From: a phage
Direction: 5' to 3' (one strand)
Length of the DNA stretch: 64,000 bases
NCBI GenBank assembly: GCA_020619395.1
Contig: GCA_020619395.1_4860.1
Positions within the stretch are counted from its first letter, which is position 1; each line of letters starts with the position of its first letter. Under the pieces are notes generated by a model. That model had not been told where the DNA came from and did no database searches. It worked only from the letters and a program-made list of their open reading frames with translations. Below, piece by piece: positions 8,281 through 44,300 of this stretch. Made by a program: the position numbers and the translations under genes.

Positions 8281-10134
8281 TTACAGTTTGAAGTTGCTCA
8301 GAGACACGCCCAGACCGAAATCGGAACCGCTTGCAGACAGGCCGTTGCCAGACAGCGTGAAGTCTTCCCCACCGTTGTTGAAGAACAGAGAGGTCGCCAT
8401 CGTGTTGTAGGCATTTACACCAGTCATAGACCAGGTGCAGTTGTTACGGACGAAGTCCAGCAGGCATTTACCGAAGATCGGGTTGATAGCCATATCCAGA
8501 GATTCACCGGTAGCTTGCGGTGCTTTGGATGCGAACAGAGAAGCGGCCAGTTTCAGCATGTAGATACGCTGTTGACGCTCGTTCAGTTCACGGTGGCTGT
8601 AGGACTGTGCGTTCAGGTAGCTATAGACGTCGTTCGCGTTATCACCCAGTTTGGTAACAACGGAAATCAGGTCCATATCCTGGAAGCTACGTTTCTGTGC
8701 AGTACCGGTGTAAACACCGGAAACAGTCGGTACGGCTGCTTTCACGATGTGGCTGCAATGGATGGTACCATTGAAGGCATCGCCCAGCTGTGCTTTCAGT
8801 GCAGAAGCAAATACTGCAGTGAAGCTGGTCGCTGCAACAACTTCGCCGTTCTGATCACGCGGGGACATGGAATTCAGAATAGCGAGCAGCTGTTTCAGAG
8901 AGTTGTCGTAACCGACCGCAATTTCAGACAGCATAGTAGACAGACCACCCAGACCGTTACCGGCACGATGGCTAACTACCAGTGCTGCTTCACGCGGTGC
9001 GAACATATCCAGGCAACCTTCGATAGCTTCACGGCTACCGTCGATTTTGGATACATCAGGACGAGCGTCAGCACCCCAGGACAGGTATTCTGCCACACGG
9101 GAGAACTTGCGATCTTGTTTGTTCAGACGTTTCACAAACAGGTCACGCCAGCCACCGATTGCCGCGATTTCTGCAAATGCAGCCAGCAGCAGCAGTTGAC
9201 GTTCATACGGTGCCATTGCACCTTCAGTTTGAGAATCGACCAGACTTACTACGATTTCAGCCTGCAGCTGTTTCAGGTCGTAGACGCCGTTAACGACAGG
9301 CTTCTGACCGGTGAAACGCATGTTGACGAAACCAGTACCGGATACACGCGGATACACCTGTACCTGATTGGTGTCCAGCAGAGTCGGAGTGGCGTCGGAT
9401 ACGTTGCTTGGGCTGTGCTCAACGGTGATTGCGAAATCAGCACGTTGTGCGTGGCCGTTAGCATCCACAACCGCACCATCTTCCAGCGGCATTACTGCAG
9501 CCTGATAACGGTCATGCTTACGCAGGTTCAGCGTACCCAGGTAGCCTGCGATACGACCGAAGATGCCCATCATCATCTGACCCATCAGAGTACGTGCCCA
9601 CTCAGCATCCAGAACTTTACCCAGGTCTGGTACGGAGTTGATGATCATGAAGTTCGCATTGGTCAGACCATGCGCTTCCATGATGTTTTTCTGTACTACT
9701 GCCAGCACGTCTTTGTTGAACAGTTCAGTGATGGTGTAGTAGTCTTCCTGGCCGTTGTTGGTAGTTTCTTTCAGACGCAGAGACTGACCGCGTTCAAAGA
9801 AGATAATACCGTACAGCCAGTGGCCCTGCCATTGGCCTGCGACATACGCCGCGGAACCCATTTCGTTACCCACGCCGGCGATGGTGCCCCAGCGGAACGC
9901 GTTGAGGTATTCGTTGCTTTTCTTCAGCTCGTCCAGGAGGTTGACGAAGTGCATTGCATAGGTGCTGATGTTGCGGATGCCAAATGCGTTATCGAATTGG
10001 CTGACAGTAGAAGTACCCGGCACAGCAGTTTGCACTTTTACAGTCTCGTTGCCCAGACCGCCCAGTGGTGCGGTGTCTTGAGTCTGAGTGTTGTTCTGCT
10101 GAGCGTTGTTGTTAGAGTCAACGATTTTTACCAT
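8281..10134 (-). CDS. abundant early or structural protein (617 aa); candidate phage-nucleus shell protein (chimallin), alternatively a capsid protein
   Basis: stand-alone unit with its own promoter-like motif, conserved leader TTAAGGAATATTTAAA-ATG and terminator; adjacent to the beta-prime-like gene as in the phiKZ gp54/gp55 arrangement recalled from memory; no sequence motif confirmed. Confidence 0.35.
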   Translation of the reverse strand: MVKIVDSNNNAQQNNTQTQDTAPLGGLGNETVKVQTAVPGTSTVSQFDNAFGIRNISTYAMHFVNLLDELKKSNEYLNAFRWGTIAGVGNEMGSAAYVAGQWQGHWLYGIIFFERGQSLRLKETTNNGQEDYYTITELFNKDVLAVVQKNIMEAHGLTNANFMIINSVPDLGKVLDAEWARTLMGQMMMGIFGRIAGYLGTLNLRKHDRYQAAVMPLEDGAVVDANGHAQRADFAITVEHSPSNVSDATPTLLDTNQVQVYPRVSGTGFVNMRFTGQKPVVNGVYDLKQLQAEIVVSLVDSQTEGAMAPYERQLLLLAAFAEIAAIGGWRDLFVKRLNKQDRKFSRVAEYLSWGADARPDVSKIDGSREAIEGCLDMFAPREAALVVSHRAGNGLGGLSTMLSEIAVGYDNSLKQLLAILNSMSPRDQNGEVVAATSFTAVFASALKAQLGDAFNGTIHCSHIVKAAVPTVSGVYTGTAQKRSFQDMDLISVVTKLGDNANDVYSYLNAQSYSHRELNERQQRIYMLKLAASLFASKAPQATGESLDMAINPIFGKCLLDFVRNNCTWSMTGVNAYNTMATSLFFNNGGEDFTLSGNGLSASGSDFGLGVSLSNFKL

Positions 10135-10180
10135 TTTAAATATTCCTTAATAGTGATTGCAATCATAGTTCGGTTCGCAG

Positions 10181-10195
10181 AGATAATATCTGCCT
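10181..10195. promoter_or_regulatory. promoter-like motif AGATAATATCTGCCT, 47 bp upstream of the minus-strand start at 10134
   Basis: member of the recurrent AGATAATATC family in a divergent intergenic region. Confidence 0.4.
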
Positions 10196-10273
10196 GTAAT
10201 TTCATGGAATGCAAGTACGCCGTCGCTTACTTACAAGGCACATAGTCCAGACATTTCTCAGGAACTGTCACAT

Positions 10274-10288
10274 AGATAATATCAATCT
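10274..10288. promoter_or_regulatory. promoter-like motif AGATAATATCAATCT, upstream of the plus-strand gene at 10341
   Basis: second copy in the same divergent intergenic region. Confidence 0.4.
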
Positions 10289-10340: not shown

Positions 10341-11408
10341 ATGTTCAGCCAAGCCGAGTTAAACCAAGTGGCCATAAAGGGTCACAGCACGGACCCCTCC
10401 GCTATAACATTAGCGGCTCACGTAAAAAACAACAGCCAGCGTATACGCAACTACTACGAACAGCTTAATCGCAGTGCTGGTAATGGCCATTTGTTGCAAC
10501 AGGTGTTGTCTGCCATCGGCTATGCCGGTGAACCAGAGTACGAAGACATCGAATGGGCTTGCCGTCGCAAGCTTGTTCAGATTGGTAACGCCTTACGCTT
10601 GACGTCTGTTGGTGAGTACGGTCAAATCTTTAATAGCAAGTTTATCCAGGGCCAAGATGAGGTAATCTCTCTCGTAGCCCGCCCAGTAAATCCAGACCTT
10701 TCGTTCCGCGACTACACCCCCGCCCGTTACCTCTACCATGAGTATACCAACCTCAATTGGAAGTTCGGTGACGGACGGCCCCGAGGTGTTACGGTGATCG
10801 AAATCAACCTGGTTGCTTTGCTTTGGCAATATGTCAAAGGTCAGCAACACTACAGTCGCGGTACCGAACCTATTGCCACACCTGTGTATCTCCAACGACA
10901 TGTGATCTCTCGCATGTTGCCGAGCTACATGGATATCGCCTTTGTAAATATACATCGTGCGATAGCCTTCGGGAAAGAGATTGAACCGGATGAAACATTA
11001 CGTGTCATTCCTGTTCCACCGCTTCAAGCTTTAGCTGTGAAGCACGCAAAAGGCATCCGTAGTAAACTACTGGCTGCCAACCCGTTACCGGGACAAGTCT
11101 TAAACAACATCCCATTGTTCTTCCAACACCCTGATGAAGAAGGCCACACAGCACTGGAACTGATTGTCTTTCGAGAACCAGGTCAAACACTGCAGAACAC
11201 CTGGCACCAGAACATGGTGAACTGGTACTGGGCACTGTTTTGTCTTCAATACAACCAGGGGAATATGGAAAAGCATAAACGTACGATGTTGGTTGATTTG
11301 GCGCGTTATGTGGACTCTAAAGTCCTCACACGTCTGACCAAATCCTTCTATAACTTTATCCAACGGGATTTGATTATCCCGTTGACGACAGAGCTAGAAG
11401 AAAAATAA
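10341..11408 (+). CDS. hypothetical protein (about 355 aa)
   Basis: ATG at 10341 preceded by AAGGAG; the listed ORF begins at an upstream GTG; followed by a UUCG-loop terminator. Confidence 0.6.
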   Translation: MFSQAELNQVAIKGHSTDPSAITLAAHVKNNSQRIRNYYEQLNRSAGNGHLLQQVLSAIGYAGEPEYEDIEWACRRKLVQIGNALRLTSVGEYGQIFNSKFIQGQDEVISLVARPVNPDLSFRDYTPARYLYHEYTNLNWKFGDGRPRGVTVIEINLVALLWQYVKGQQHYSRGTEPIATPVYLQRHVISRMLPSYMDIAFVNIHRAIAFGKEIEPDETLRVIPVPPLQALAVKHAKGIRSKLLAANPLPGQVLNNIPLFFQHPDEEGHTALELIVFREPGQTLQNTWHQNMVNWYWALFCLQYNQGNMEKHKRTMLVDLARYVDSKVLTRLTKSFYNFIQRDLIIPLTTELEEK

Positions 11409-14043: not shown

Positions 14044-14092
14044 GTCTGGCCCCTTGGTTTTTTACTCAGCTATAAGACTTGCGGGATACGTG

Positions 14093-14128
14093 AAAAAAGA
14101 AAAAAAATAACCCACTCCGAAGAGTGGG
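14093..14128 (-). terminator. intrinsic terminator (CCCACTC-CGAA-GAGTGGG on plus, UUCG loop on minus, then T-run)
   Basis: hairpin 14111-14128 with adjacent A-tract, downstream of the gene ending at 14135. Confidence 0.55.
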
Positions 14129-18183: not shown

Positions 18184-18198
18184 AGATAATATCTATGC
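18184..18198. promoter_or_regulatory. promoter-like motif AGATAATATCTATGC in a divergent intergenic region
   Basis: same motif family; sits between the minus start at 18153 and the plus start at 18317. Confidence 0.4.
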
Positions 18199-19571: not shown

Positions 19572-19638
19572 CGAGCATCTCCTTTGGAATCTATTACAGC
19601 ACAGACTCCCTACAAGATAGGTGCCTGCCGTAAAAAAG

Positions 19639-20055: not shown

Positions 20056-20090
20056 GGTAACTTCCTCCTATAAGATTCTGAGGCAGTCGT

Positions 20091-20128
20091 GAAAAAAGAA
20101 AAAAAAAAGAGGGAACCGAAGTTCCCTC
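20091..20128 (-). terminator. intrinsic terminator (GAGGGAAC-CGAA-GTTCCCTC on plus, UUCG loop on minus, then T-run)
   Basis: hairpin with an 18-nt A-tract on the plus strand, downstream of the gene ending at 20143. Confidence 0.6.
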
Positions 20129-21090: not shown

Positions 21091-21150
21091 GATGCTTACC
21101 TTTTATAGTCGAGTTGGGGGAATTCAGATGAGGCTTTCTCATCTCACTTA

Positions 21151-21165
21151 GGTAATATCTATCTG
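21151..21165. promoter_or_regulatory. promoter-like motif GGTAATATCTATCTG (variant)
   Basis: shares the core TAATATCTATCT; about 60 bp upstream of the start at 21090. Confidence 0.35.
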
Positions 21166-22137: not shown

Positions 22138-22511
22138 GTTGCTTCCTTCTTACTACTATTGCTGCTTCTATTGGTAGTCCACGACATATCCCTCGTGGGT
22201 GGGTTCGGTGTGTAACCGAATAAGTTTTTCTGTTCCCAGGGCAACGCACCAGGCTTAATTGATTTAGTTGGCAAACCAGGAACAGAAAAGGGGTATACAG
22301 ACTAGGGCGCGAGGTGGCTCTGGATGGATGCGTAAGAAAAACCCAAACGGCCCTGGCCTGTAAGTTGGCCCGAAGTCACCGTGTCGGAGGACAGCCCATG
22401 CAGGTAGGCGGCAATGGACACGGTGACCGCGGAAGTGGTTCGTGTTACCCTTGACCCGTGTGTGGATACGCGTCTTAATTCGAATGCCTTCGGGATAAGG
22501 GTAACACAAAT

Positions 22512-22592
22512 GGGGCGAGCAAACGGACGGATTCGAACCGTCGAAATATCCGATTATGAGTCGGGTGTTAATTCCTCTAACTTCGCTGCTCT
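22512..22592 (-). tRNA. tRNA-like sequence, anticodon CAU (Met or Ile2); non-canonical acceptor stem
   Basis: minus-strand T-arm GACGG-TTCGAAT-CCGTC, anticodon stem-loop CCGA-CTCATAA-TCGG and D-arm GTTA-GAGGAAT-TAAC found by hand; acceptor pairing imperfect. Confidence 0.35.
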
Positions 22593-22661
22593 TGCTTTGA
22601 CCGGACTCGAACCGGCGACCTTCCTCGAAGAGGTTGCTCTACCTACCTGAGCTACAAAGCC
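22592..22661 (-). tRNA. tRNA-like sequence; anticodon loop TTCGAGG (possible CGA) with a very short variable region
   Basis: minus-strand acceptor GGCTTTG/CAAAGC, D-arm GCTC...GAGC, T-arm GCCGG-TTCGAGT-CCGGT; isotype not resolved. Confidence 0.35.
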
Positions 22662-23706
22662 ATTGTTCATGGCATCATGATAGTTACACTCAACGTACCA
22701 CACCCCTACTGGTTTCCGTTTCGGGGGACTTAACCAGACACCATACGTCCAAGGTCGACGCTTAGGTGTGTTATCAGTTGCCTGACTGGAAATCTCTTAC
22801 GAGACGTCTACGTTGAACCGGCAAGCCGGCCATGATGTGAAGATGGGGGAACGCCCAGGCTTCCGCCCAGTCGAGTGAGGTACGAATCCTTCACTCCTGT
22901 CATCACTGATGGTGACAGCGCTCCCATTGTAAGGTGCCGGTGCATCCCGGCGTGTGTTAGTGCACTCAGCTCCCTCGGGCTTATCTGCGGCAACACGTTG
23001 CCCGGAGCACCGACATATACCACAGTAACCTCGTAAAGTCACTCTGGTATTGTTCGTTGCATACTACTAAGTTATCACGTAAACGATTTCATCACTTCCA
23101 TAAATAATAATTAACCTAAATTCATTTCTGAATGCGGGTGATGGACTTCTTCTTCTGAGCCTGGCCGCAAGGTCAGGTCTTAGCGCCTCCAAGCACCACC
23201 CGCTATCACGTACATTCGTGGCGTACCGGCCGTATGAGGTACCGCGCCTACGGTGACACACAGTCACCCTAACACTGGGAACTCAATCCCATTCGGTTAT
23301 CAGATTGTGGATTTACAGGCGTAGCGTAGCGGCTTAATGGGCCGGTGCTTGCCTGTCCCCTAGGGACGGTTGTCGTGGAGACGCCAGTCTGTAAGTGGGG
23401 CCCTTGCGGGAAAACCCATCGCCTGTAAACCAAACATGATTGAATACCCAGAACCGGACGTTGGAAATCAACATCCTGATGTACTGGAGTATTTCATGCA
23501 TAAACGTGTCTCGTATCGAATGAGGTTATGACCGGTCAGATACCCAGCATCCTGTACAAGCGACCTGGTGCTTTGTGTACCTGGCTGCTACGGATTTATT
23601 GGTCTACCGTAGGTCTGAGCTGCTACCGGCTCATGCGGGACATCAACCCGCACAATCTGAGTAAGTATCATGGCTCGAATAGGGTTAGTGGGCCGAAGCC
23701 CACTGT

Positions 23707-23961
23707 TTAGCCAGCATTGAACGATTCATGAACGACGGTCCCAGCAGGATAGTGCGTAGTGCCGATAAGAGTAACGGTCAGGGTAAGCCCTTCATCCCAG
23801 CGCTCTTTCGGTAACCAGCGGCAGTCCATCCAATGACCACAGTCGGGAGGAATTGCACACGCAGCTTGCTCCGTAGGAGCCGCCACGATTATGGAATCAA
23901 ATTCATCATACCCGATATCGTCAGTTCGTTCTAGCAAGTACAAATTCATGTTGTTCTCCAA
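23707..23961 (-). CDS. small hypothetical protein (84 aa), shares an N-terminal motif with the 191 aa protein at 24671-25246
   Basis: GGAGA 5 nt upstream of ATG; MNLYLL...IIVAAPTEQAACA...W resembles MNLYRV...VLVVLAENEEQAKSFW. Confidence 0.5.
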   Translation of the reverse strand: MENNMNLYLLERTDDIGYDEFDSIIVAAPTEQAACAIPPDCGHWMDCRWLPKERWDEGLTLTVTLIGTTHYPAGTVVHESFNAG

Positions 23962-24013
23962 CAGTTGACAAATCTGTGTCTTCTGTGTTGAACCTGAATT
24001 CGTTGGCTAAATG

Positions 24014-24089
24014 TGGCGGGGGCACGAGGTTTCGAACCTCGAACCTTCGGTTTTGGAGACCGGTGCGCTACCAATTGCGCCATACCCCC
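24014..24089 (-). tRNA. tRNA-Trp (anticodon CCA), 76 nt with encoded CCA end
   Basis: hand fold: acceptor GGGGGTA/TGCCCCC, D-arm GCGC-AATTGGTA-GCGC, anticodon loop CTCCAAA, T-arm CGAGG-TTCGAAA-CCTCG; anticodon arm identical to E. coli tRNA-Trp except one base. Confidence 0.8.
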
Positions 24090-24182
24090 AGAATTCTTTA
24101 AACGTGTTTATACGGATGCGCTACCCCGTTATCGCAGGCGATTGATGGGGTCAAGCTTGCGTGCTTCTGACTCCCGCATGAT

Positions 24183-24674
24183 TCACCTCCGTAATTCGTA
24201 AGTGCTAATCTCACCACCGGTGTAGATATCGCATTCAGACGCAATCTCAATAGCACGAACCGCACTCGCGCCCATCTTCATCGCACCCAACGCATACTCG
24301 TAACCGCTTCCGGTTGCCAGAGGTGGTGTGGCTTCACTCCACCACAACGTCACGTCGTCTTCACGTTTTCCGCCGACTATCGCTTTTCCTGAGGCCAAAA
24401 GCATCAGGAAAGTAAAATCCATCTTCGCAGGTAACTGCGAGCTTTGTGTTAACCCCTTGTAGCCGGGTCTCAAGCGGACCGTTTCCAGCAGGGCCAACTG
24501 TCCTGTGATGTCACCGCTTACTCCGAACGCCACAATCCGTTCACCAGTAATCCACCACTCCTCGTCAGGAGGACAGACGAATAACTTCTGGGTATTCAGG
24601 TTGCAGATATTCGACCCACGGGTTAACTGGCCGTCAGCAGCTAAGACTTTTCCATCGAACGCTATCGTCGTCAT
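24183..24674 (-). CDS. HslV/proteasome beta-subunit-like N-terminal nucleophile peptidase
   Basis: start at internal Met gives MTTIAFDGKVLAADGQLTRG, matching the HslV N-terminus [24 protein letters not shown]; also GSGYEYALGA and CDIYTGGE segments. Confidence 0.65.
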   Translation of the reverse strand: MTTIAFDGKVLAADGQLTRGSNICNLNTQKLFVCPPDEEWWITGERIVAFGVSGDITGQLALLETVRLRPGYKGLTQSSQLPAKMDFTFLMLLASGKAIVGGKREDDVTLWWSEATPPLATGSGYEYALGAMKMGASAVRAIEIASECDIYTGGEISTYELRR

Positions 24675-25246
24675 TGGGCCACCTTCCTCGGTGTGTACTC
24701 GAATGTCGTTTCCGTCAGGTAATCCTGGCGCATCCAAGTCAGCTCCTGGCCTTGCTCACACTTGATGTTCGTAACCAAACCGGCTTCAAGTGGTAGCTCA
24801 CAGACCGAAACGATTCCGGGTTTATCACCGTCCCAATGTGCGAATGCCGCCTCGGGGGTTGTTGCCCCGACGATGATTCCGGCGTCGACATAGTCTTCGG
24901 TAGCGACGTCGCTGTAAACCAGGTACAGCTTGATGATCGACGGTTGCTTGGCTTGGTAGCCGAAGTACACTCTGGTTTTACCCGTGGTAAGATTCCAGGT
25001 GTGTCTGGCGGATTCGGAAACAAATTCCAAACCGGGATGGGAATAATCATCCCAACGGCCTTGCTTCAGAACCACCCCAGGCGTAACCATCGGGGTAGAC
25101 ACAGCGCCGTCGTAGCAGCACGCAACCGCTGGACGCTCTGCGCTAACCGGCCAGAAGGATTTGGCCTGCTCCTCGTTTTCGGCTAAGACAACCAAAACCG
25201 ATTCAGGCATCTCGTTTCGGTAAAACCCGACGCGATACAAGTTCAT
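24671..25246 (-). CDS. hypothetical protein (191 aa) with an internal two-fold repeat; translationally coupled to the HslV-like gene
   Basis: GGAGA upstream; ATGA overlap with the downstream gene; repeat VLVVLAENEEQAKSFW / AGIIVGATTPEAAFAHW. Confidence 0.55.
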   Translation of the reverse strand: MNLYRVGFYRNEMPESVLVVLAENEEQAKSFWPVSAERPAVACCYDGAVSTPMVTPGVVLKQGRWDDYSHPGLEFVSESARHTWNLTTGKTRVYFGYQAKQPSIIKLYLVYSDVATEDYVDAGIIVGATTPEAAFAHWDGDKPGIVSVCELPLEAGLVTNIKCEQGQELTWMRQDYLTETTFEYTPRKVAQ

Positions 25247-26189
25247 GGTTTAATTCTCCGTTTGGTTTATCATACCTCACGCAGAATCTGTAAATTTTAA
25301 TCAGCCAGGTACCGTCGTTTCTCAACGGGAGTACCCACCCCTCTCGTCTATTCCGAGCCGTCAAGATCCGATCACCCCACTTTGGAGTTATCCCCCAAGT
25401 CTGCGGTTCTACACGCAGACCCCTTTTCGACGCAACGCCGAATTCGAATCAGTTTTGGCCCGACGCCAGAGCGGAATCAGCGATAACTATCGGAGGTAAG
25501 TTCAACGACGTCTCTCCGCTGCCCAGTCCTCTGGCGCTGCCACGGTCAACTCGGATTTTGTCATGGGTGCGCAGTCGACTTTCTCGACACTCTCGCAAAC
25601 CGAACTACGCCCGACGTAGCACCGTCGGCAGGTCGGTTATTTACCGAGTACCTGAATGGGTGGTGATTGTCGGAATCCCCGCCGACGCTCACCGGTTCTG
25701 TTCCACGGCGAAAGTTTTCCAGAACATAATAAATCACGCAGTGTTAGATTGCGCTTTGTCGAAGACACCACGGTAGGTATTTTCGAAAAAGCGTCCTGGG
25801 TATCAGTCCCAGGACTTGGAGCCCTAGCGTGCAGGGTTTAAAAGTGATTGGACCATTGGCGCGGTCAATCGCTATTCGCATATAACAACAAACTCACGTA
25901 ATCAAAAAATTACCGGCTCGAGGCGTAGGCGTCCAGGAGCCGGTGAGTCACACAGCAGTGAGTCCCTCTGCGGGGATTTTCGTGGAGCTTGTCGTTGGAA
26001 TAAAAATCCGTCCCCGGACGGGTTGGTGTTGTGGGTCGACTTGTCAGAGTCTACCGACCAGGGAGGCGACCACCGAAGCTATGGGTTTTGGACATCGAGT
26101 GGTGGTCTGAACACACGATAGGGAAACCACGTAAAAAATACACAGGGTACCCAAACTAGGACTTCCGTCCGATCACGATCTCTTAATAA

Positions 26190-26400
26190 GGATCACGCGC
26201 GCGCCTGCACGCGTTTTAAGATCTTAATATATTAATATATTTATTTATATAAATAATTATAATAATTAAATATAATACCTAAAGGTATTATTATATTTAA
26301 TATTATTATATATCTTTTAAAAGATCCTGGAGGATACGGGTGTGCGCACGCGCACGCGTATAAGGAAAGGGTCTTCGACCCGATCCACAGGATCAATCTA
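26190..26400. other. candidate replication origin / DNA-unwinding element: about 115 bp of nearly pure AT with palindromes, flanked by alternating CG tracts, GATC sites and a DnaA-box-like ATCCACA
   Basis: CACGCGCGCGCCTGCACGCG at the left; perfect 12-bp palindromes TTAAGATCTTAA and TCTTTTAAAAGA; central AATACCTAAAGGTATT; GTGCGCACGCGCACGCG at the right; GATCCACAGGATC at 26380. Confidence 0.4.
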
Positions 26401-26959
26401 AAAAACAATCTAAGTGATTGTTTTAAAAAGAAATTTTGAGAATTAGATTAAATTATCCCCTAAGGGGGATTTTAGAGCGAGTTAAACAACCCAAAGAACT
26501 CGTAAGTAACCGACAGTGTGTGTCGGTTACAGAACGATCCAGTTTTCACCCAGACATGGCACGAAGTGCTACCCAACGTGTGATCGTCGTCGCCGGCCGC
26601 GACCGTCGTCCCGGAACCGAAACGGGAATGGCACTCTCGCGCTCTCAGCGGCCCGCTGGCGCGATTTTCCGGTATGGGGAACCCAAGTGTACTGGGTCTG
26701 AGTTAAATCTCGTTCTAGCGCTTTCTAGAGCGTTTTTAATAACTGGTTAAAAAACATACAATCCTGAATCCCCATTCCCTGAATTTCCTCGCCCCGACAA
26801 AAATAAATTCTCTGTCTCGATACATAACCCCCTCTAAAACGCACGTAACCGACCCTAGAAAACGATAAACTGCCAAAAACGAGCTACCCTACGTCGATAC
26901 CACCTAATCGTTTTCTGATGCTTCCCAGACCCCTTTAACCGGTTGGTTAAAAAGTAACC

Positions 26960-27009
26960 AAAAAAATAAAAAAAAATAAGATTGGCGTACTCCCCGAAGA
27001 GAGTACGCC
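26960..27009 (-). terminator. intrinsic terminator (GGCGTACTC...GAGTACGCC hairpin with long A-run on plus)
   Basis: hairpin immediately downstream of the gene ending at 27017. Confidence 0.55.
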
Positions 27010-27016
27010 TAGTGAC

Positions 27017-27526
27017 TTAACACTTGATGGTGTAGCCATCAAGGCCAAGGTGTACTGGTTTTATCCATAACCCTGGCTCCCCGAAAATATTCAGGTCGTA
27101 AGTTTGGTAATGCATGATCTTTGCAGGAACATGCACACCCATGCGTTGCAGAAATTCCCAGACGGCGACGTAGCGTTCACGAGTGATGAACATTAGCCCG
27201 GAGTCGAACCCGGAACCGATGTCTAGGAAATTACCAAGAGAACTGTCAAAACTTGACACCCCATCTTGAGTAAGTGCGACCAACCCTTTAGTTAAATCTC
27301 TGTGGTTGTCAATGAAGTTACAGAGATCTACGATGGTTATTTGACCGTAAATACGACGGAGGACGGCAGCAACAGCCAAAATCTCGCTGGTATTTCCGTA
27401 GTCACCTAAAGGGTTATGGTCCATCATCGCAGTAATTATGCTTGTGTCGCAGAGGTCGATTAACCGCTGGTCATGTACCACCAGGTTAAGACCTTGCCCC
27501 ACCTGCACGGTTGGCGCAGTAAACAT
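27017..27526 (-). CDS. hypothetical protein (about 169 aa; start at internal ATG)
   Basis: AAGGAG 7 nt upstream of the ATG at 27526. Confidence 0.55.
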   Translation of the reverse strand: MFTAPTVQVGQGLNLVVHDQRLIDLCDTSIITAMMDHNPLGDYGNTSEILAVAAVLRRIYGQITIVDLCNFIDNHRDLTKGLVALTQDGVSSFDSSLGNFLDIGSGFDSGLMFITRERYVAVWEFLQRMGVHVPAKIMHYQTYDLNIFGEPGLWIKPVHLGLDGYTIKC

Positions 27527-43552: not shown

Positions 43553-43698
43553 TGTAAATACTCCTTCTGGGTAATAGTCGATTAAAGCGTTAACGTGTAA
43601 CGCTCACCTAAGTAATATATATCTCAGTTCTTTTTGAATGCAATTAATAAAATAAAAAGACTCACCCGTATCCGAAGATAGGATGAGCCTAGTGGAGC

Positions 43699-44247: not shown

Positions 44248-44300
44248 TTTCTTGTCCTTATTTTGTTCCCCAACACATGAAACCAACGTCATGTAAAAAA

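Follow-up and report, generated by a model that had tools for sequence, protein, structure and literature searches.

The window, i.e., the whole 64,000-nucleotide stretch of DNA analysed, belongs to an SPN3US-like jumbo phage of the genus Seoulvirus and is 98–99% identical to SPLA5c, phage 1252, and Proteus phage 7. The low coding density between 22 and 27 kb pointed out in a first-pass annotation is real: the gaps at 22138–24182 and 25247–27016 account for 3.8 of 7.1 kb, and thus for over half, of the non-coding DNA in the window. The 22–24 kb part contains a tRNA-Trp gene (24014–24089), which lies 1.2 kb downstream of the RNA described below and on the same strand, together with two weak tRNA-like sequences, so that the term RNA island is fair for the whole interval. 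The present study concerns the other gap, where the same annotation had delimited a GC-rich segment devoid of ORFs at 25250–26190. ORFs are indeed lacking: the longest start-to-stop ORF spans at most 72 aa, and nearly all relatives in GenBank are unannotated at this place. The extent was understated, as the segment is the left part of a gap running from 25247 to 27016 and is bounded at the right by an AT-rich palindrome (26214–26323, 6.6% GC). The GC enrichment goes in the stated direction but is mild: the segment has 52.2% GC where the window averages 49.1%, which places it at the 89th percentile of segments of equal size.

The segment 25250–26190 is not protein-coding. A split or frameshifted gene had been named as the finding that would speak against an RNA-coding or regulatory island; no such gene was found, and conservation is present. 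The plus strand does hold a stop-free frame of 160 codons (25294–25776), whose first start codon comes only at 25558 and which relatives carry in interrupted or shifted form. None of the small ORFs is kept among the homologues, and their longest open frames differ in strand and position. Lengths not divisible by three are found in 16 of 24 and in 24 of 32 indels of the homologue alignments, and substitutions occur evenly over the codon phases. Hence the stretch shows none of the three marks expected of a coding gene or its pseudogene, i.e., a reading frame that is conserved, substitutions phased by codon, and indels in threes.

Alignment with related phages showed that the stretch is conserved in four genera, namely Seoulvirus, Erskinevirus, Machinavirus, and Wellingtonvirus, in all of which the gap keeps its syntenic position and contains no credible genes. 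It is conserved far more than its flanking genes: the flanking 377-aa protein shares 48–60% identity with its counterparts in the other three genera, whereas a 29-nt RNA core is near-invariant. The whole stretch also folds more stably than its dinucleotide shuffles (minus strand, z = −4.2; plus strand, z = −4.5), none of 20 shuffled sequences reaching the native stability, and it carries 10 terminator-like hairpins where 2.7 are expected. Folding of the single sequence does not discriminate between the strands, as these two z values make clear, but the alignments do. G·U outnumbers A·C by 115:23 in the 3′ domain and by 25:4 in the central stem, favouring the minus strand, and the alignment folding energy amounts to −50.7 kcal/mol on the minus strand versus −15.9 kcal/mol on the plus strand. 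The folding strand is the minus strand, as for the flanking genes and tRNAs, and a defined multi-domain fold is maintained on it by compensatory changes. Of the two possibilities raised earlier, a regulatory or an RNA-coding island, the latter is thus strongly supported for 25250–26190 by conservation, compensatory changes, G·U strand bias, and the non-coding signature.

The RNA gene likely extends from 25301 to about 26130 on the minus strand, which corresponds to about 830 nt in this phage; the smallest homologues measure about 440 nt and fold to the same core. Two hairpins singled out in the first-pass annotation (GTCTGCG/CGCAGAC at 25399–25420 and CCGGCTC/GAGCCGG at 25913–25943) both exist, and they are parts of one multi-domain minus-strand fold.

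The best conserved portion is a universal 3′ domain (25301–25546, minus strand), aligned over 15 non-redundant homologues from four genera (alignment A2). In the RNA sense it starts with ACCGUGGCAG and ends with GCUGA. It is closed by a long-range helix (CCGU:ACGG plus GGC:GCC), in which 25542–25545 pair with 25358–25361. Besides four hairpins and a further long one at its end, it comprises the helix GCGCCAGA:UCUGGCGU. The near-invariant core, UCUUGNCGGCUCGGNA(N)AGACGAGAGGGG (25338–25366, minus strand), is the same in 15 of 15 sequences except for two variable bases and one inserted base, and holds an invariant hairpin (CUCG-loop-CGAG) as well as one strand of the closing helix. The internal hairpin GUCUGCG-loop-CGCAGAC (25399–25420, minus strand) has double-sided changes in four of its seven pairs, e.g., from UGCG/CGCA to AGCG/CGCU to CACGG/CCGUG. 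RNAalifold predicted 45 pairs for the domain, 18 of which are changed on both sides, and an extended structure has double changes in 25 of 51 pairs.

The central domain (25547–25792, minus strand; alignment A3, 16 sequences) is built around the stem GCUUUUUCGA...UCGACAAAGC at 25753–25792, in which 8 of 14 pairs show double changes. Conserved single strands, CUAACACU (25740–25747) and CACCCAUUCAGGUA (25649–25662), are accompanied by lineage-specific hairpins. The proportion of paired cells reaches 96.3% for the 3′ domain (36–49% when slid, with 0 of 500 shuffles attaining the observed value), 94.1% for the central stem (37–52% when slid), and 92–94% across the 51-pair structure of the 3′ domain and the central stem (35–52% in slid controls), a measure that is inflated because the structures were derived from the alignments counted, and one that suggests more independent events than there are, because the sequences fall into four clades.

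Directly 5′ of the central stem lies the terminator-like hairpin Ha, GUCCUGGG-loop-CCCAGGAC (25793–25815, minus strand). A hairpin occupies this position in every genus, with unrelated stem sequences. The remaining part (25816–26129, minus strand; alignment A4) consists of the 5′ leader GUGGUUUCCCUAUCGUGUG and a variable expansion domain enclosed by long-range helices. Because the leader base-pairs with the residues that immediately precede the central domain, the variable part amounts to an insertion within the fold. The helices formed by the leader across the expansion covary (GUGUG/CGCGC, GUGAC/GUCAC, CCAGUG/CACUGG), and 25 of the 98 pairs in A4 have double changes among only five sequences from two genera. 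Counted from the UUAC motif at the 5′ edge up to the central domain, this phage has about 346 nt and the pEa10 group about 60 nt; over all homologues, the expansion measures between about 60 and about 365 nt. Nested in it is the terminator-like hairpin CCGGCUC...GAGCCGG, followed by UAAUUUUUU (25904–25943, with the hairpin at 25913–25943; minus strand). Its outer stem is conserved, while the inner stem differs among the SPN3US-like, SPAsTU, pEa29, and Erskinevirus/Machinavirus sequences.

The 5′ edge of the fold coincides with the motif UUUUUUACG (26130–26138, minus strand), a candidate promoter or transcription start whose UUAC(R) all genera share at this position. A second copy of this U-rich-UAC(R)G motif, UUAAAAUUUACAG (25288–25300, minus strand), directly follows the terminal GCUGA, some 40 nt ahead of the following start codon. 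Most lineages have such a copy just 3′ of the RNA; it is missing in the SPAsTU, pEa29, pEa9, and pEa10 groups, where the next ORF starts 20–25 nt after the RNA. Six of the seven T6(N)ACR sites in the window are on the minus strand, and four are located in gaps upstream of minus-strand genes. The AT-rich promoter-like motif of the phage, GATAnATATTAyCT, has no good copy in 25247–27016 and therefore does not explain transcription of the RNA. A sigma-70 scan returned a single weak site, inside the palindrome, and no intrinsic terminator was found after the RNA. Between the palindrome and the RNA there is a conserved box, GATCTCTTAATAAGGATCACGCG (26177–26199), composed of two GATC sites around the 9-bp palindrome CTTAATAAG. 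This box is nearly unchanged in most homologues of all four genera and diverged in three Machinavirus phages (ChrisDB, pEa9, and Caitlin). The AT-rich palindrome itself is flanked by alternating CG tracts and GATC clusters, and GATCTCTTAATAA resembles the E. coli oriC 13-mer.

The ORF directly downstream of the RNA comes from at least four unrelated families. The gene for an HslV-like peptidase is directly next only in SPN3US and phiEaH2, and in some phages other genes are inserted between it and the RNA. Such variation of the immediate neighbour argues against a leader specific to one gene, for which a constant association would be expected. A tRNA-Trp gene lies 1–1.2 kb downstream in three genera, an arrangement seen, besides the window, in SPAsTU, pEa29, phiEaH2, and pEa9, and Kwan has an island of eight tRNAs about 3 kb downstream of the RNA. 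Pfam and PHROGs searches with eight neighbouring proteins gave no functional clue except the HslV-like peptidase.

As judged by a scan with the core pattern, the RNA family occurs solely in jumbo phages of the SPN3US type that infect Salmonella and Erwinia: matches occurred only in the SPN3US-like phage clade and none in bacterial or archaeal genomes. A metagenome match (L025) was attributed to chance, as it shares a 21-nt pattern only and is devoid of the terminal hairpin, GCUGA, and the rest of the fold. Profiles run with nhmmer --max did not detect the RNA in the sister genus Derbicusvirus, which keeps the AT-rich palindromic element at the same locus with no trace of the fold. The stretches scanned beside this locus in Derbicusvirus contained no tRNAs, and the genes after its gap have no homologues among the downstream genes of the window. 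Kwan and its near-identical Wellington copy carry an HNH endonuclease gene within the RNA, while every other collected homologue is without this ORF. In Kwan, the 634-nt insert occupies the loop of a hairpin whose stem is undisturbed, as is the invariant core, a placement that may be counted as a sign of selection on the fold. The RNA locus also marks a site targeted by homing endonucleases.

A covariance-model scan, proposed in the first-pass annotation as a check, was carried out with Rfam 15, and no known family was matched except tRNAs. For the window and six homologue loci, cmscan at the gathering score and at E ≤ 10 returned only tRNAs and noise, and ARAGORN detected no tmRNA. Covariance models and ARAGORN gave no match to RNase P RNA, tmRNA, 6S, or SRP RNA in the window or the homologue loci. 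RNase P RNA had been considered because the string ACAGAACC recalls helix P4; this idea was dropped, as the string is one strand of a local covarying hairpin (GUUCUG/CAGAAC versus GUUCG/CGAAC). In the searchable literature on non-coding or structured RNAs of SPN3US, phiEaH2, jumbo phages, and Chimalliviridae the element was not found, and a fragment of it may stand in the supplement of the catalogue PMC10690425. The RNA family thus has no Rfam 15 counterpart and is apparently undescribed.

By analogy, GOLLD and ROOL RNAs appear to be its closest counterparts. GOLLD (RF01998) is large (>800 nt), elaborately folded, and found in phages and prophages, often beside tRNA islands, and the RNA described here resembles it in size and setting, being located 1–3 kb from phage tRNA genes. 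A universal 3′ domain with a variable 5′ part is common to both, which is a resemblance of layout and not homology. Unlike GOLLD, this RNA has different conserved motifs and gives no covariance-model match even at E ≤ 10 (window and six homologue loci). Its carriers are lytic phiKZ-related jumbo phages of Enterobacterales, and a homo-oligomeric RNA-only cage, a trait associated with GOLLD and ROOL, would be hypothetical here. ROOL (RF03087) is a phage-borne, highly structured RNA of about 0.6 kb, often near tRNA islands, which may be an RNA-only assembly and has no known protein partner (PMC12286853). It differs by unrelated sequence and helix layout, another taxonomic range, and again the absence of a covariance-model match.

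Other systems share single traits. The stable RNAs species 1 and 2 of T4 (rnaC/rnaD) are non-tRNA molecules of unknown function in the tRNA cluster that are cut from a shared precursor. Such excision is also the maturation route we infer here, although the T4 RNAs are small (about 120–140 nt) and simple compared with this large RNA, and no similarity between them is expected. Group I introns carry homing-endonuclease ORFs in peripheral loops, much as the HNH gene of Kwan and Wellington lodges in a hairpin loop; in contrast to group I and II introns, there is neither an intron model match nor flanking exons, and the neighbouring genes are complete and variable. ColE1 RNA II and the R-loop primers of T4 ori(uvsY)/ori(34) are origin-associated transcripts, and here too a structured transcript would adjoin an AT-rich element of the unwinding type. 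However, on its own strand this RNA is placed downstream of that element and points away from it, and in Derbicusvirus the element occurs without the RNA.

Several other readings of the region deserve consideration. The fold might be a cis-acting leader or processing platform, i.e., the long 5′ UTR of a downstream operon (small ORFs, the HslV-like peptidase, tRNAs), controlling read-through, stability, processing, or translation of the downstream transcript. The RNA shares its strand with the downstream genes, no terminator separates them, and the internal elements of hairpin plus U-run could act as regulated terminators. In the SPAsTU, pEa29, pEa9, and pEa10 lineages the next Shine–Dalgarno sequence and ATG follow GCUGA by 20–25 nt, so that the RNA is physically a 5′ leader there. 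Nevertheless, we regard this explanation as unlikely in view of the exchange of the immediate downstream gene and the insertions before HslV, the second copy of the putative promoter motif that separates the RNA from the following gene in most lineages, and a length of 440–830 nt with a universal, near-invariant 3′ domain, by which it greatly exceeds known bacterial leaders in size and elaboration. A somewhat more doubtful proposal is an array of independent small RNAs or terminators, with two or three short transcripts that would end at about 26008, 25906, and 25793 and, after them, a universal RNA of about 490 nt. Three terminator-like minus-strand hairpins within the region (26008–26021, 25793–25815, and 25913–25943, the last followed by a U-run) could indeed delimit several shorter RNAs. 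Moreover, UUACGUG occurs twice, at 26130 and about 25897, and the pEa10 group has no 5′ expansion at all. Yet the 5′ leader is orthologous in all genera and pairs across the expansion with covariation, and the U-run that follows hairpin Ha itself forms one side of the covarying central stem.

The hairpins could alternatively operate at the level of DNA, folding in single-stranded DNA as part of a replication origin or a packaging site, for instance for primosome assembly or initiator binding. The adjoining palindrome with its CG tracts, GATC clusters, and oriC-like GATCTCTTAATAA would suit this role, and many GenBank records start here. These record starts are nonetheless a convention and differ (window coordinates 26229, 26428, and 25250), helices spanning hundreds of nucleotides and a strong single-strand G·U bias are typical of RNA, and the palindromic element without the fold in Derbicusvirus indicates that the two modules are separable, all of which renders a DNA element very improbable. 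Hardly credible is a decayed or frameshifted protein gene, which the 160-codon plus-strand frame and the small hypothetical CDSs called at the locus in some relatives would suggest: there is no start before 25558, the longest frames change strand and position among homologues, the indels are out of step with codons, and conservation tracks base pairs with no codon periodicity.

The preferred explanation, which we consider probable, is one large multi-domain structured non-coding RNA outside the Rfam 15 families. In its predicted architecture, the 5′ leader and the variable expansion inserted after it precede the central stem domain, which is followed by the universal 3′ domain with the long-range closing helix, the long hairpin, and GCUGA. 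Transcription would proceed in the direction of the flanking genes, presumably starting near UUUUUUACG at 26130–26138, with expression and both ends predicted from the DNA. The RNA may be part of the same transcript as the HslV-like gene and the tRNA island or lie just upstream of them, and it would probably be trimmed to a stable species. It could then serve in trans as a scaffold that folds by itself and works with or without a partner protein, as proposed for GOLLD and ROOL, with the invariant junction and loop sequences as putative contact surfaces. Whether it represents a new class of ornate RNA of about 440–830 nt with a near-invariant junction core, serving as a free-standing machine or scaffold tied to the phage tRNA and translation module, is an evenly balanced question that rests on analogy.

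Very large, highly structured RNAs are rare in bacteria and phages, and GOLLD, ROOL, OLE, and raiA mostly have no assigned function, partly because their carriers are hard to manipulate. The new family would offer a tractable system, as SPN3US-like phages infect Salmonella and Erwinia, and mutant collections exist (PMC7411985). Since SPN3US can be grown and mutated, the function of such large RNAs would, if the interpretation is correct, become genetically testable. The RNA reading would also correct the spurious "hypothetical protein" calls in several deposited genomes. Jumbo phages related to phiKZ run their own transcription machinery, and they would appear to devote about 0.8 kb to a conserved RNA beside a tRNA island.

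The segment 25250–26190, which the first-pass annotation had flagged as a GC-rich, ORF-free island of possibly regulatory or RNA-coding nature, corresponds with high confidence to a real, conserved structured RNA gene on the minus strand, whose family is absent from Rfam 15. The RNA would span 25301 to about 26130 (~830 nt in the window), and compensatory pair changes across four genera bear out the RNA-coding reading. No credible ORF was found in the segment (longest ≤72 aa), almost no deposited relative carries an annotated gene there, and both hairpins originally named are present at 25399–25420 and 25913–25943. The GC content does exceed the window mean, but only mildly (52.2% vs 49.1%), and the true gap is wider than the ORF-free segment: it covers 25247–27016 and is divided by an AT-rich palindrome. 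Over half of the non-coding DNA of the window falls in this gap and that at 22138–24182, which agrees with the low coding density described for 22–27 kb. Folding of the 837-nt stretch is about 4 standard deviations more stable than that of shuffles, whichever strand is used, and terminator-like hairpins number 10 against 2.7 expected (8/10 on the minus strand).

Over 24600–27100 the window is 95–99% identical to SPN3US-group Salmonella phages of the genus Seoulvirus, phiKZ-related jumbo phages of roughly 240 kb; its close relatives are SPLA5c, phage 1252, the SPFM phages, SPN3US, and ‘Proteus phage 7’. The host label of the latter (MT679221.1) is unexpected given 99.3% identity to Salmonella SPN3US-like phages over the region. 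Several SPFM records (LR535901, LR535903–LR535908, LR535911–LR535913, LR535917) matched the query only in 8–40 short pieces of 94–99% identity while sister records matched in one piece, a sign that those assemblies may contain numerous small indel errors. The minus-strand gene order in the best-annotated relative is terminase, two conserved hypotheticals (377 and 184 aa), the 1.77-kb gap, a small ORF, an HslV-like peptidase, and tRNA-Trp.

Alignment with related phages, as the annotation had proposed, showed the stretch to be conserved at the same position in four genera. Low-stringency blastn matched it in 54 phage records, with full-length matches in other Seoulviruses (SPAsTU 74%, pEa_SNUABM_29 71%) and partial matches in three further Erwinia jumbo-phage genera, Erskinevirus (phiEaH2, Asesino), Machinavirus (ChrisDB, Caitlin, pEa9, pEa10), and Wellingtonvirus (Kwan, Wellington, pEa11), in which the flanking 377-aa protein is 60%, 52–55%, and 48% identical. 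In all these relatives the gap measures about 1.3–1.7 kb, longer in Kwan owing to an HNH insert, and contains no more than a few short ‘hypothetical’ CDSs, none of them conserved, apart from the mobile HNH gene of Kwan and Wellington. Duplicate removal left 15–17 sequences from the four genera. A 29-nt core (25338–25366) is invariant in the 15-sequence alignment except for two bases and one inserted base; its pattern was recovered in 11 IMG/VR and 6 metagenome contigs, all of the SPN3US-like phage clade, and was absent from the 185,579 bacterial and archaeal genomes scanned. One further match, in a metagenome contig outside this clade, lacked the rest of the element and was taken as chance.

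A split or frameshifted protein gene was not found. Between the window and SPAsTU or pEa29, 16/24 and 24/32 indels are not multiples of three and substitutions are evenly spread over the three codon phases; none of the small ORFs of the region is open in all three relatives compared. A plus-strand stop-free frame of 160 codons (25294–25776) was rejected as a gene, its first start codon occurring only at 25558 and the longest frames of homologues lying on other strands or at other positions. Elsewhere in the window, opposite-strand ORFs of 617 and 576 aa (8281–10134, minus; 8515–10245, plus) overlap almost totally, and likely at most one is real. As for known RNAs, the covariance-model scan that had been advised was run with Rfam 15 but matched the segment to no curated family: only tRNAs reached the gathering score, and relaxing the threshold to E ≤ 10 brought up nothing relevant, either in the window region or in six homologue loci. 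ARAGORN found no tmRNA. A full-text literature search, which did not extend to the supplementary list of one large phage structured-RNA catalogue, returned no description of the RNA.

Both the fold and its strand emerge from the alignments. By inspection of the first alignment, stem mismatches reading A·C on the plus strand are G·U on the minus, and in helices G·U outnumber A·C cells 115:23 in the 3′ domain and 25:4 in the central stem. For the 3′ domain alignment of 15 non-redundant homologues, RNAalifold gave −50.7 kcal/mol on the minus strand versus −15.9 for the same columns read as plus. Here, 18/45 predicted pairs are changed on both sides with pairing kept (4–8 when the 3′ partners are slid by 1–3 columns), 96.3% of cells are paired (36–49% slid), and 0/500 column shuffles reached the covariation score. 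Adding the 25400 hairpin and its neighbour yields 51 pairs, 25 of them double-changed. In the central stem the figures are 8/14 pairs and 94% of cells versus 37–52% slid. Several hairpins, such as that just 5′ of the central stem, keep their position with stem sequences unrelated between genera. Since the structures were derived from the same alignments used for counting and the sequences represent only four clades, the double-change counts and slid controls are the measures to trust.

Read in the RNA sense, the AT-rich palindrome is followed by a box, CGCGUGAUCCUUAUUAMGAGAUC (26199–26177), conserved in most homologues of all four genera, then by a small variable hairpin and the U-rich motif UUUUUUAC(R) at 26138–26130. 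Next come a conserved 5′ leader (...UUUCCCAGU..UGUG), an internal expansion of highly variable length, a central domain (25792–25547), and a universal 3′ domain (25546–25301), closed by CCGU:ACGG and GGC:GCC and ending in a 14-pair hairpin and GCUGA, all on the minus strand. The distance from the UUAC motif to the central domain is about 346 nt in the window; it falls to about 230–240 nt in the ChrisDB type and about 60 nt in the pEa10 group and reaches about 365 nt in Wellingtonvirus. The smallest homologues, about 440 nt from that motif, retain the same core fold. In the Seoulvirus–Erskinevirus alignment the leader is base-paired, with covariation (GUGUG/CGCGC, GUGAC/GUCAC), to the segment immediately preceding the central domain, so that the expansion, which harbors the 25913–25943 hairpin and its following U-run, appears as an insertion inside one fold, albeit from only 5 sequences. 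The corresponding ChrisDB segments, CCAGUG and CACUGG, are complementary when read by eye.

In Kwan and Wellington, a 634-nt insert with an HNH endonuclease gene has taken the place of 21 nt in a hairpin loop, the hairpin lying immediately 5′ of the invariant UCUUGGCGG (region 1186–1850 of the Kwan locus, CDS 1205–1714). The stem (CACC...GGUG) and all sequence 3′ of it are intact, and an otherwise identical contig is free of the insert. Such a pattern would follow from selection on the fold combined with targeting of its most conserved sequence by a homing endonuclease. Just upstream of the HNH ORF (1734–1799, minus) lies a sub-threshold Rfam int-alpA match (31 bits, gathering score 35.8, E = 0.0011).

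The surroundings bear on how the RNA is made. No terminator was found 3′ of it and the next ORF begins 20–25 nt downstream in four lineages, which makes co-transcription with the downstream genes and subsequent processing likely. The same features would suit a role in cis; moderate confidence is nevertheless given to one RNA acting in trans, as opposed to a leader or several smaller RNAs in an array. The gene directly following varies: it is a 191-aa ORF in the window and HslV in SPN3US and phiEaH2, while the other phages have further, unrelated small ORFs. Searches of Pfam and PHROGs returned nothing for the 191-aa ORF (24671–25246, minus), which separates the RNA from the HslV-like gene. This ORF is missing from SPN3US, whose HslV begins at that same ATG position; in SPAsTU and pEa29 another small gene has been inserted, at window ~25297–25301. 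The 3′ flank of the RNA is a hotspot for gene insertion. Further downstream, tRNA-Trp lies 1–1.2 kb away on the same strand in Seoulvirus, Erskinevirus, and Machinavirus, and Kwan has eight tRNAs about 3 kb away. SPAsTU encodes tRNA-Ile, Asp, Glu, and Tyr beyond tRNA-Trp, and the window shows weak tRNA-like sequences at 22518–22589 and 22592–22661 (minus; Rfam 30.6 and 40.9 bits), missed by ARAGORN; the gap at 22.1–23.7 kb may represent a tRNA island in decay.

In all genera a U-rich-UAC(R)G motif marks the 5′ edge of the fold, with a second copy just after GCUGA in most lineages, about 40 nt before the next gene. Judged by sequence, this T6(N)ACR motif is a candidate phage promoter: 6/7 sites in the window lie on the minus strand, and 4 occupy gaps preceding genes of that strand, although the total is not enriched (7 vs 3.9 expected). 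Minus-strand T6(C)ACG/A motifs at 14089–14098, 20088–20097, 19629–19637, 10421–10429, and 44292–44300, two of them directly 3′ of GC hairpins with long U-runs of the form TTTTTTTTCTTTTTTCACG, may constitute a second promoter class abutting terminators. A recurrent GATAnATATTAyCT(n)AGUGAG element stands 50–80 nt upstream of several genes (658–671, 2074–2087, 10274–10287, 18184–18197, 21150–21163, 43610–43623, all minus) and before gene 1 in Derbicusvirus; allowing ≤3 mismatches, there are 37 matches versus 21 expected. No good copy of GATAnATATTAyCT was found in the gap 25247–27016. The motif resembles the AT-rich promoters used early, by the virion RNA polymerase, in phiKZ-related phages (PMC5312081).

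The palindrome itself (26214–26323, 6.6% GC) has a central hairpin, AATACC-TAAA-GGTATT (26274–26289), whose stem is compensatory between genera (ATCCC/GGGAT, AACTC/GAGTT, AACCC/GGGTT), and is flanked by alternating CG/CA tracts (26194–26213, 26340–26359) and by clustered GATC sites. The sequence GATCTCTTAATAA resembles the E. coli oriC 13-mer. Possible roles for 26194–26359 are those of a replication origin, an unwinding element, or a hairpin regulating in both directions. On the palindrome's other side, the gap (26360–27016) has patches conserved across genera (26411–26452, 26564–26698, 26937–26961), minus-strand hairpins (26455–26470, 26506–26530), and the terminator of the upstream operon (26984–27009). 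Its Seoulvirus alignment folds at −101 kcal/mol on the minus versus −80 on the plus strand, and a second structured transcript, reading into the AT-rich element, may be encoded here.

In the sister genus Derbicusvirus (CR5, Phobos, Derbicus), both upstream genes and a palindromic AT-rich element are retained at this locus, the gap measuring just 420–550 nt and giving no match to the nhmmer profiles of the RNA. Its downstream genes are unrelated to those of the window, and the stretches scanned on both sides contain zero tRNA. As the RNA is missing along with the HslV/tRNA module while the AT-rich element stays, the RNA travels with that module, and it and the AT-rich element are separable. Among known RNAs, GOLLD and ROOL come closest; they are likewise large, ornate, and phage-borne, often beside tRNA islands, and GOLLD also combines a conserved 3′ region with a variable 5′ region. 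Recent work showed both to assemble into RNA-only cages, their function being unknown (PMC12286853). Layout and context of the RNA match GOLLD and ROOL whereas the covariance models of both failed to recognize it, and it therefore represents a distinct family of broadly the same type.
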